The notes below the pieces were generated by a model. It worked only from the letters and a program-made list of their open reading frames with translations, searched no databases and was not told the DNA's origin. The position numbers and the translations under genes were made by a program. This document shows, one piece after another, positions 17,807-20,089 of a DNA stretch of 55,480 nucleotides (its first letter is position 1; the number at the start of each line of letters is the position of its first letter). Source of the DNA: an uncultured Candidatus Saccharibacteria bacterium (GTDB lineage: Bacteria > Patescibacteriota > Minisyncoccia > Phycocordibacterales > Zambryskibacteraceae); NCBI GenBank assembly GCA_964603485.1, contig CAZRVE010000002.1, positions 1 to 55,480 of the forward strand, given 5' to 3'.

Positions 17807-18817
17807 ATGAAAAAAACCAAACCGCCTCAGGAAACAAAAGAAGAAAAAAATATCGAAGAGACCCTTCGGCAAATAAAAACAAAGTTTGGTGATGATGCAA
17901 TTATGAAGCTTGGTGAAAAGCCACGTGTTGACGTTCACGCGATCTCAACCGGATCCATTGGCCTTGATGTAGCGCTTGGCATTGGCGGTCTCCCTCGTGG
18001 AAGAATCATTGAAATATTTGGCCCAGAATCTTCAGGAAAAACCACCCTTTCCCTCCATGTGATTGCAGAGGCACAAAAGACGAATGGCATTTGCGCATTT
18101 ATTGACGCAGAACATGCAATGGATCCCGAATACGCAAAACGTCTTGGAGTAAAAATAGACGAACTCCTAATTTCTCAACCAGACACAGGAGAACAAGCGC
18201 TTGAAATTGTAGAGAGTCTTGTACGAAGCGGAAAGATGGACGTAATCGTCATCGACTCAGTCGCAGCGCTTACTCCCCGAGATGAAATAGAGGGTGACAT
18301 GGGGGCGCACCACGTAGGAAAACAGGCCCGTCTCATGTCGCAAGCCCTTCGAAAGCTTACCGCAATCGTCGCCCGATCAAAGACCATCGTAATTTTCATT
18401 AACCAAATTAGAATGCAAATCGGCGTAATGTTTGGAAATCCAGAAACGACACCTGGAGGAAAAGCTCTAAAATTCTACACATCAGTACGACTTGATATCC
18501 GCCGTATCGCCCAAATTAAAAAAGGAGATGAGGTCATGGGCGGACGGGTGCGGGTTAAGGTAGTAAAAAATAAAGTTGCCGCTCCTTTTAAACAGACAGA
18601 GTTTGACCTCATGTATAACGAAGGAATATCTCATGAGGGAGAGCTCATCGCGCTTGGAGAAAAATACGGCATCATCACAAAATCAGGAACTTCCTACTCA
18701 TACGGAGAAGAGAAAATTGGACGTGGATATGATTCAACAAGGCAATTCTTGAAAGAAAACACAAAAGTTGGCGCACAAATACTCAAAGATATCCTCAAAA
18801 AACTCAAGGAAGAATAA
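17807..18817 (+). CDS. recA: Recombinase RecA
   Basis: [59 protein letters not shown]. Confidence 0.97.
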
Positions 18818-18845
18818 TTGACATATTCCCTCTTTCGGATAGAGT
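18818..18845 (+). promoter_or_regulatory. Promoter TTGACA-N16-TAGAGT immediately after the recA stop
   Basis: TTGACA 18818-18823, 16-nt spacer, TAGAGT 18840-18845. Same architecture as the rplJ promoter. Confidence 0.45.
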
Positions 18846-18847
18846 AG

Positions 18848-19072
18848 CTCTACCAAACGGACCTGTAGAGCCTGTGGAACCCTAGAGAGGATTTGGTTTG
18901 TAAAAACCTCTAGGACACCCGCCCCACAAGAGCAACCTACGAAAGTAGGATGGGAGGCATCCGATGTTTTGGCCCCGGGACCGAATTTCCGGACTAAGCC
19001 CAAAGGGCTCACCGTCATATGTTTGGGAGACGCATGTCGACCACAGAGAGCTCACTCTGTGGTTCTTTTTTT
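18848..19072 (+). ncRNA. Candidate structured small RNA (~200-225 nt), class unknown
   Basis: Bounded by its own promoter and a plus-strand-specific intrinsic terminator. Closing helix 18849-18858 / 19021-19030. Internal hairpins at 18881-18914, 18936-18949 (GAAA loop), 18975-18992 and 18997-19009. Confidence 0.45.
19040..19072 (+). terminator. Rho-independent terminator (plus-strand specific)
   Basis: Stem ACCACAGAG / CTCTGTGGT followed by TCTTTTTTT. The reverse complement has no T-tract. Confidence 0.75.
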
Positions 19073-19421
19073 ATTCCAATTCTCTCGCCTCTTCCATTCG
19101 AGACGTCGCAATAGATTTTATGAGATCAGCAATTTCCTTTGCTCTCATTACCTGCTGGTCACCTTTCAAGTCAAAGTAATCGGCAGAAATTGCAATAACC
19201 CTTGTAACATCCTCATCGGGAATATATTGAACTTGCAAGAGTTCCACTCCGTTCCTCTCAAAAACATCTTGGATAAAATCCTTCATTTGCTTTGAGTCAA
19301 AACACATTCTAAAACCTTCTGCGAGAGGACCTGACAAAGATTCCATAGAATCAGCTGGCATCTTCTCAAAATGAGCCTCGTCTTCACCTTCTGGAATGTG
19401 TGTGGGGGCTTCAAATGTCAT
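19071..19421 (-). CDS. Acidic hypothetical protein (116 aa)
   Basis: ORF with no recognisable motif; its stop codon overlaps the T-tract of the convergent terminator. Confidence 0.5.
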   Translation of the reverse strand: MTFEAPTHIPEGEDEAHFEKMPADSMESLSGPLAEGFRMCFDSKQMKDFIQDVFERNGVELLQVQYIPDEDVTRVIAISADYFDLKGDQQVMRAKEIADLIKSIATSRMEEARELE

Positions 19422-19516
19422 AGTGTAATAGTACCTCGCCCTTCATCCTATATCAAAGCCGAAACATGGACTTTTTCCCTTATCCTGTTAAAATCTAGCT
19501 CTAAAAAAACGCTTAT

Positions 19517-20089
19517 ATGCTTGAATACAACGAAATTACTGAGAGAAAATACATAGTTCTAGACGGAGCTCCCTATGAAGTAATAGGCTCCCATGTATTC
19601 CGAAAACAGCAAAGAAAGCCGGTAAATGCAACAAAGCTCAAAAACCTCATCACCGGAAAAGTAACCGAGCGATCATTCCATGTATCTGAAAAGGCGGAGG
19701 AAGCAGATATTGCCTATCGAGATATAAAATACCTTTATAACAACCGCGGAGAATGGTGGTTCTGTGAAACGAGCGATCCTTCGAAACGATTCCAACTTAC
19801 GACAGAAATGCTCGGAACCGCAAGTCAGTTTCTAAAAGCAAACGCCCTTATTGAGGCAATGATTTTTGATGATCAGATTATTGGAGTAAAACTTCCTATA
19901 AAAGTCGACCTCAAAGTAACCGAGGCTCATCCCGCAGTACGGGGAGATACCGCAAAAGGTGGATCCAAACAAGTGGTACTCGAAACTGGAGCAACGATAC
20001 TAGTCCCTATGTTCGTAAAAGAAGGAGATGTGATTCGCATCAACACAGAAACTGGAGAATATACAGACCGTGTAGGAAATTCTTTCTAA
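19517..20089 (+). CDS. efp: Elongation factor P
   Basis: ...YIVLDGAPYEVIGSHVFRKQQRKPVNATKLKNLITGK... matches the EF-P N-terminal KOW/OB pattern; 190 aa. Confidence 0.9.
   Translation: MLEYNEITERKYIVLDGAPYEVIGSHVFRKQQRKPVNATKLKNLITGKVTERSFHVSEKAEEADIAYRDIKYLYNNRGEWWFCETSDPSKRFQLTTEMLGTASQFLKANALIEAMIFDDQIIGVKLPIKVDLKVTEAHPAVRGDTAKGGSKQVVLETGATILVPMFVKEGDVIRINTETGEYTDRVGNSF

Follow-up and report, generated by a model that had tools for sequence, protein, structure and literature searches.

Gene content and signals of the locus

The window analysed here, a stretch of 55,480 nucleotides (nt) on contig CAZRVE010000002.1, carries recA and, further downstream on the same strand, efp, the gene for EF-P. 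The spacer between them holds a promoter, a structured interval and a terminator, followed by a convergent orphan open reading frame (ORF), termed ORF116. The promoter, interval and terminator very probably constitute a genuine gene, transcribed in its own right, for a non-coding RNA (ncRNA), with a core of about 180 nt, or about 220 nt including the terminator. A previous interpretation of this site, made from the letters of the sequence alone and called here the sequence-only reading, had proposed a promoter-to-terminator structured RNA of no known class. Shared gene order, expression signals, compensatory changes, constraint and a metatranscriptome contig confined to the RNA all bear it out. 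The features are collected in Table 1.

The host genome (G000) belongs to an ultra-small groundwater bacterium of the Paceibacteria, within the candidate phyla radiation (CPR). It comprises 648,619 bp in 27 contigs, with a GC content of 43% and a completeness of 99.5%. The recA loci nearest to that of the host come from CPR genomes of the Parcubacteria/Paceibacteria type. Most comparisons below are made with G001, the only other species of the genus. CPR (Patescibacteria) genomes measure about 0.6 Mb, and, to our knowledge, next to nothing is known of their RNA biology.

Table 1. Features of the recA-efp region (window coordinates; transcript ends are predicted)
Feature	Position	Strand	Description
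recA	17807-18817	+	ORF, 336 aa; Pfam RecA 2.8e-138
Sigma-70-type promoter	18818-18845	+	-35 TTGACA 18818-18823, 16-nt spacer, -10 TAGAGT 18840-18845
Predicted primary transcript	18852-19072	+	About 220 nt
Closing stem, 5' strand	18853-18872	+	P1 18853-18857, P1b 18860-18862, P2 18868-18872
Arm P3	18874-18922	+	Base 18874-18877 with 18919-18922; distal hairpin 18881-18889 with 18907-18914
Metatranscriptome contig	18889-19033	not shown	Sediment run X8; 156 nt, depth 9.3, 0 differences
Arm P4	18923-18954	+	Base CCCA/UGGG, 18923-18926 with 18951-18954; distal stem 18936-18940 with 18945-18949, GAAA loop
P4 asymmetric internal loop	18927-18935	+	CAAGAGCAA (9 nt) facing one A
Junction strand P4-P5	18955-18959	+	AGGCA, invariant in G001
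Arm P5	18960-18993	+	Base UCCG/CGGA, 18960-18963 with 18990-18993; distal stem 18968-18972 with 18981-18985
Junction strand P5-closing stem	18994-19005	+	CUAAGCCCAAAG, partly conserved (UAAG, CC, AG)
Closing stem, 3' strand	19006-19026	+	P2 19006-19010, P1b 19014-19016, internal loop AUAUG, P1 19022-19026
Linker hairpin, core to terminator	19029-19038	+	Short, variable; a longer, different hairpin in G001
Intrinsic terminator	19039-19072	+	Stem-loop 19039-19064, 10 bp, 6-nt loop, then CTTTTTTT (U-run)
ORF116	19071-19421	-	Orphan, 116 aa; convergent with the RNA; promoter-like site 19456-19428
efp	19517-20089	+	EF-P; own promoter-like site 19467-19494

The promoter matches the consensus at 10 of 12 positions, and its -35 hexamer begins one base past the recA stop, as the sequence-only reading had described. 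G001 carries TTGACT-N16-TAGAGT at the same position relative to its own recA stop, and in environmental variants a G to A change at 18842 turns the -10 hexamer into TAAAGT. Promoters and terminators were scanned in the 3 kb around the RNA gene. Promoter-like sites as a class were not enriched there (6, against 4.4 ± 1.9 in shuffled sequences), so the weight of this promoter comes from its conservation despite saturated neutral sites. The terminator works on the plus strand only, in agreement with the earlier claim, and none of the other terminator-like sites of the region, which number 11 with this one, came close to it in strength. It is kept in G001, with one compensatory change from an A-U to a G-C pair. 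Before 19039 the plus strand has only one terminator-like site, a weak hairpin of 5 bp at 18948-18962 that G001 does not keep.

The start of the transcript was placed at about 18852 from the spacing to the -10 hexamer and from the onset of conservation at 18851/18852; its end is the terminator U-run. The promoter sits where the upstream gene ends, and that gene and the RNA share one terminator, an architecture that matches that of small RNAs (sRNAs) derived from a 3' untranslated region (UTR) and possessing their own promoter. The terminator scan found no terminator-like site between the recA stop and the RNA gene, and recA transcripts probably read into the RNA gene and use its terminator. 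As recA lacks its own terminator, this RNA structure probably doubles as the 3' end and terminator of the recA mRNA.

A hint of expression came from sediment metatranscriptome run X8, in which one contig covered most of the RNA. The run gave no cover on 18600-18888 (289 nt) or on 19056-19300, that is, on the last 218 nt of recA and on the ORF side; sequencing runs with a small word share, including this uncovered part of X8, were not used for statements on habitat or absence. Contaminating DNA should cover the flanks too, so the contig hints at a discrete, abundant RNA.

Predicted fold of the RNA

The consensus fold was predicted with RNAalifold on the two species, and the pairs were counted on the full alignment. 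In the predicted structure, arms P3, P4 and P5 radiate from a four-way junction that is enclosed by a long, interrupted stem (P1/P1b/P2). The RNA interval has a GC content of 51-53%, compared with 43% for the genome. Its minimum free energy (MFE) is -80.3 kcal/mol in the host (z = -3.2) and -74.0 kcal/mol in G001 (z = -3.75). The reverse strand folds nearly as well (z = -2.76), so the folding energy is not informative on the strand. The strand is instead given by the promoter, the U-run and the G-U pairs, eight of which (counted as alignment cells) would become A-C on the opposite strand.

All 13 pairs of the closing stem are paired in both species, and two of them vary on one side only (G-C to G-U and C-G to U-G). 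The sequence-only reading had drawn a terminal helix of 10 bp here. Its inner part stands as five conserved pairs (P1), while the outer three lie upstream of the likely start at about 18852. That reading had also counted at least four hairpins inside the helix, and this count did not hold: the conserved core consists of three arms and the closing stem, and the MFE hairpin at 18975-18994, for example, is not kept in G001.

The arms differ in how much of them is conserved. The distal hairpin of P3 is present in the host only, as G001 lacks 29 nt there; an environmental variant, 18884 A to G, changes an A-U pair of P3 to G-U. In P4, the AGAGCAA of the internal loop is invariant between the two species. 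The GAAA hairpin at the end of P4, reported earlier as a GNRA hairpin at 18936-18949, is real, and its stem carries two compensatory pairs in G001. The loop itself is a 6-nt non-GNRA loop in that species, and this was the only GNRA hairpin of the RNA, leaving no conserved tetraloop of the signal recognition particle (SRP) type. P5 contains a 4x4 internal loop (AUGU/UUUC) and a variable tip, which is replaced in G001 and shortened in environmental variants by a 2-nt deletion at 18973. The linker before the terminator also carries several insertions in these variants, at 19030-19036.

Over the 45 pairs, all 90 cells of the two species are paired. Ten pairs vary and all of them stay paired, four by two-sided and six by one-sided changes; arms P4 and P5 carry three fully compensatory pairs. 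When the partners were slid by 1-3 columns as a control, pairing fell to 31-51% and no compensatory pair was seen.

Constraint and non-coding status

Neutral sites are saturated between the two species. Only 49 of 144 four-fold synonymous sites (34%) are identical in recA, and 27 of 70 (39%) in efp. The RecA proteins are 90% identical (301/336), and the overall nucleotide identity of recA is 77%. The RNA core comes close to this latter value, with 115 of 155 aligned columns identical (74%) and 36 gap columns. Neutral sites being saturated, an RNA that changes no faster than recA must do something. The invariant blocks comprise the 5' end, the AGAGCAA of the P4 loop, the junction strand with the P5 base, and the 3' strands of P5 and of the closing stem.

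A variant lineage on contigs from three further studies (runs X5, X6 and X11) gave the same picture at closer range. The 44 nt from 18805 to 18848, covering the end of recA and the promoter spacer, contained seven substitutions. In the core (18852-19029) there was one substitution, the still paired 18884 A to G, and the 2-nt deletion in the P5 tip. Taken together, these comparisons indicate that the RNA is under strong purifying selection.

The alignments also indicate that the interval is non-coding, with no conserved coding sequence, a lost start codon and a broken frame in relatives. The 71-aa plus-strand ORF (18964-19179) has ACG in place of its ATG in G001, and the deletion at 18973 shifts its frame in environmental variants. 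The indels between the two species within the RNA measure 29, 1, 2, 3, 1 and 4 nt. The earlier statement that no plausible plus-strand coding sequence lies here is thus upheld.

Distribution and the recA-efp spacer

The RNA was found in very few genomes. BLAST detected it in 2 of 41 relatives, and a covariance model of the RNA (R1) in 2 of 86 genomes of the family. Among 151 genomes sampled from the order, R1 matched the host only, the other row being an 11-bit partial match with E = 0.94; the first-look filter of this genome search may miss weak matches. Neither nhmmer nor R1 found the RNA in 80 recA loci of relatives (best R1 score 7.5 bits). A pattern scan of metagenomes returned 24 stretches, all of which were scanned with R1 and none of which was a homologue (best match 14 bits, partial); the nine that were read were protein-coding look-alikes. 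Viral contigs gave 6 and 0 stretches and no homologue (R1 at most 4.6 bits). The host genome contains no paralogue, and the RNA is therein a single copy. Within the searched sets the RNA is, as far as these comparisons reach, restricted to one genus, and appears to be young. This fits the option of a lineage-specific sRNA that the sequence-only reading had kept open.

The order recA, promoter, RNA, terminator and convergent ORF is common to both species of the genus. Among the 80 recA loci, efp lies downstream of recA on the same strand in 52, with gaps between the matched segments of 52-1408 nt; 19 of these gaps are at most 150 nt and 20 exceed 400 nt. This wide spread implies that the spacer is a variable slot. 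In relatives it holds unrelated small ORFs or non-coding stretches, and in the host's genus it holds the RNA and the orphan ORF as lineage-specific cargo. Only short, chance-level repeats were seen when the flanks of the insert were searched for repeats or a target-site duplication.

Two spacers downstream of recA in other genomes (L046:2475-2718 and L038:2481-2700) have a conserved element of about 120 nt in common. It has a TTGACA-type box and a terminator, and is different from and unrelated to the RNA described here.

ORF116, which converges on the RNA, encodes a hydrophilic, acidic and fast-evolving protein. Its counterpart in G001 is a convergent ORF of 108 aa, with which it is 33% identical (32/97). 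The ORF and the RNA abut in the host (19071/19072) and lie 17 nt apart in G001. No family was found for ORF116 in Pfam, PADLOC (E = 0.02 only), PHROGs or the ESM Atlas, and no relatives in 301 order genomes or the 80 recA loci. In close strain variants its 3' half is replaced by about 182 other letters, while the RNA is nearly identical there. The transcript of ORF116 meets no U-run terminator on the minus strand, and may extend into the RNA gene as antisense RNA.

Comparison with known RNA families

Rfam 15 at gathering scores returned only an rRNA end and four tRNAs from the whole window. At E ≤ 10, a search of 501 nt at the locus gave two unrelated sub-threshold matches on the minus strand, and the G001 locus gave five different ones; no family matches the RNA in either species. 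The sequence-only reading had set aside SRP RNA, RNase P RNA, transfer-messenger RNA (tmRNA) and known riboswitches, and the model searches agree with it on each of these.

Proposed mode of action

Our full proposal is an independent gene for a structured ncRNA, matching no known family and acting through fold-dependent binding; taken as a whole, we give it about an even chance. Its last part, a mechanism based on fold-dependent binding of a protein or ligand, is put forward tentatively and is the less secure part. The positions that seem to be constrained are the strands of the junction and, in the neighbouring arms P4 and P5, the internal loops; hairpin tips and all of distal P3 appear free to change or vanish. 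This distribution suggests that the RNA most likely works through its three-dimensional fold. It could be a stable RNA with a protein or small ligand as its binding partner, serving as a decoy, a scaffold or a regulator of the ribonucleoprotein type. Linear base pairing with mRNAs would be less likely.

Several points weigh against this proposal. The pair counts are partly circular, because only two full sequences were available and the structure was derived from the same two. The shuffle control was weak, with 27 of 500 shuffles reaching the observed pair values. The X8 contig hints at a discrete, abundant RNA, yet it is a single contig of about one read in length, which carries no level, strand or ends. 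The restriction to one genus implies that the function is dispensable for relatives. The insert may have had a selfish or neutral origin, although the strong constraint argues against neutrality now. Finally, the binding mechanism is drawn from the conservation pattern.

A bolder version would make the RNA the first member of a new fold-dependent class, in which the internal loops of P4 and P5 would dock across the junction into a ligand pocket or active site. In this version, a single CPR genus would recently have gained the gene, along with a hypervariable orphan protein. The architecture resembles junction-organised aptamers and the hairpin ribozyme. We consider this version improbable.

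Alternative explanations

The alternative that fits the locus best is a cis-antisense regulator of ORF116, in which the RNA would pair with a 3' extension of the ORF116 mRNA, or transcription from the two sides would collide, lowering ORF116 expression. The convergent and nearly abutting arrangement in both species is consistent with this, as are the U-run on the plus strand only and the promoter-like site of ORF116. The RNA and ORF116 also co-occur, and neither was found outside the genus. However, antisense pairing needs no conserved fold, junction or internal loops, and exactly these are conserved. ORF116 is hydrophilic, has 116 residues and no family match, and does not look like a type I toxin. 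The minus-strand terminator-like sites inside the RNA gene are all weak and not kept in G001. The replacement of the 3' half of ORF116 beside a nearly unchanged RNA also speaks against such a role, and we judge it unlikely.

The promoter adjoining the upstream coding sequence, the terminator shared with recA, the size and the stand-alone architecture would also suit a trans-acting sRNA derived from the recA 3' UTR, of the DapZ/MicL type, that pairs with its targets through a seed. Such an RNA would be expected to show a single accessible seed, whereas conservation here extends over 180 nt of paired and junction sequence, and it is the apical loops, where seeds usually lie, that vary; no obvious seed was seen. 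A crude duplexfold scan across 880 start regions yielded no target that could be interpreted (recA ranked 863rd and efp 765th); unrealistic long loops dominated its energies, which made them unusable. We attach only a small probability to seed pairing, and continue to prefer action through the fold.

A divergent 6S-type RNA, which would mimic an open promoter and bind the housekeeping RNA polymerase holoenzyme, had been among the options of the sequence-only reading and is now disfavoured. With 6S RNA (SsrS, RF00013) the RNA shares a size in the class of about 150-200 nt, a strong sigma-70-type promoter of its own, a long closing stem in which the 5' end pairs with the 3' end, and likely abundance, for which the X8 contig is only a hint. 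Rfam detected no 6S RNA anywhere in the genome. On the other hand, RF00013 found no match at the locus at E ≤ 10, nor in the whole host genome at E ≤ 0.001 or E ≤ 10. The predicted four-way junction, with covariation in P4 and P5, is closed and lacks the rod shape with a large open central bubble that characterises 6S RNA. The RNA is also confined to one genus, whereas a housekeeping 6S RNA would be expected in relatives, and Rfam can detect canonical 6S RNA in 20 of the 151 genomes sampled from the phylum (7 over the cut-off). A 6S function is very unlikely.

We hold it to be just as doubtful that the RNA is a riboswitch-like aptamer whose terminator gates antisense read-through into ORF116. 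The layout of promoter, conserved multi-helix junction, variable linker, terminator and convergent gene would allow it, and conservation is centred, like that of aptamers, on junctions and internal loops. Nevertheless, no Rfam aptamer matches in either species, and the next gene is convergent rather than on the same strand. Inspection of both species revealed no conserved alternative pairing, of the anti-terminator kind, of the terminator with the 3' strand of P1. With 10 bp and a U-run, the terminator looks constitutive.

There is still less to be said for the view that the RNA is merely the structured 3' end of the recA message, stabilising it or arising by processing, and has no separate gene. 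The recA mRNA must include the RNA, as there is no terminator between the recA stop and 19039. Against this stand the near-consensus promoter, conserved across saturated divergence, the X8 contig, which covers the RNA and not the last 218 nt of recA, and the recA genes of relatives, which do without the RNA. We see little likelihood in this explanation.

A divergent SRP RNA, RNase P RNA or tmRNA has a negligible chance: RNase P RNA (C11:4607-4973, 119.6 bits) and tmRNA (C6:40123-40530, 98.2 bits) were located elsewhere in the host genome, which rules both out, ARAGORN found nothing at the locus, and although the whole genome lacks a detectable SRP RNA, SRP RNA was rejected for want of a model match at the locus, of detected SRP partner proteins and of a conserved GNRA hairpin.

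SRP components in the host and its relatives

The searches for SRP components gave results of their own. Models of the small and large SRP RNAs (RF00169 and RF01854) matched neither the locus nor the rest of the host genome, and RF00169 found nothing in 41 genomes of the order or in 151 genomes of the phylum. For the proteins Ffh and FtsY, PF02978 and PF00448 had no match in the host genome, which is 99.5% complete but split over 27 contigs, and the SRP-GTPase motif set occurred in none of its ORFs. Across 101 genomes the Ffh M domain (PF02978) was found in none. PF00448 gave only short partial matches at the level of the P-loop, in 42 of the 101 (best 25.9 bits, model positions 3-56 of 196). 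The controls of these searches matched in 12-14 of 14 genomes. A literature search turned up no paper on 6S RNA or SRP RNA in CPR bacteria, nor on absence of the SRP pathway. A Patescibacteria-wide absence of co-translational targeting would be remarkable, if true and not an artefact of the tools.

Structured RNAs beside ruvB and ndk

Two further unannotated RNAs, both found class-wide, were noted in the host genome. The first lies upstream of ruvB on the opposite strand (contig C22, locus L134). Its features are a strong promoter and a long closing stem, and in the host it is overlain by a spurious ORF of 94 aa. Of 30 ruvB loci from relatives, 27 contain both halves of the closing stem, those of the host and G001 among them. 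The second lies about 125-300 nt past the ndk stop (contig C6, locus L194), with a TATAAT box and a terminator, and is predicted to fold in the host into a closing stem with a multi-branch centre. Its motif pair occurs in 20 of 29 ndk loci, again including both species. The ndk gene itself (C6:15490-16008) is a single frame of 203 aa whose match to the NDK model is split in two (positions 1-50 and 52-135), which points to an insertion of about 30 aa that is common to most relatives.

We considered whether the RNA downstream of recA is a relocated copy of either, and rejected both. The host and G001 keep their own ruvB-side RNA, where R1 scores at most 6.6 bits, and both carry the ndk-side RNA after ndk. 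The likeness to the ruvB-side RNA is one of type. Both belong to the same host class, have a strong promoter and a terminator, measure about 170-220 nt, neighbour a DNA-repair gene and have a long closing stem around a four-way junction. They differ in sequence family, and one is class-wide while the other is restricted to a genus.

Relation to known systems

On its own, the finding is a modest one. A genome of 649 kb spends about 250 bp on this RNA gene, and the recA-efp spacer is marked as a slot for lineage-specific cargo. As the RNA is young and genus-specific, it offers a natural case for studying how new structured RNAs arise and become fixed.

Several known systems resemble parts of the locus. 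RatA/txpA and SR4/bsrG are convergent antisense RNAs of type I toxin-antitoxin loci. The locus has in common with them a structured RNA, of about 180-220 nt, that faces a small lineage-specific ORF in convergent orientation, and a possible 3' overlap. It differs in that ORF116 is no small hydrophobic toxin and the overlap is only putative. DapZ and MicL are 3'-UTR-derived sRNAs with their own promoter; like the RNA described here, they have a promoter at the very end of the upstream gene and share the terminator with the mRNA of that gene. They act by a short conserved seed together with a chaperone, whereas in the RNA downstream of recA the whole fold is conserved and the loops vary. The riboswitch-like alternative would resemble the antisense RNAs under riboswitch control that are represented by pocR in Listeria and ubiG in Clostridium.

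The raiA-motif RNA, OLE, ROOL and GOLLD are orphan classes of structured bacterial ncRNAs with no assigned function. The RNA downstream of recA matches none of them in Rfam 15; its distribution, one genus, is much narrower than theirs, and it is smaller than OLE, ROOL and GOLLD. It shares with these classes a stand-alone gene that is richer in GC than its genome (53% vs 43%), a multi-helix fold with conserved junctions, a lineage-restricted distribution, and neighbouring genes that do not explain the RNA.

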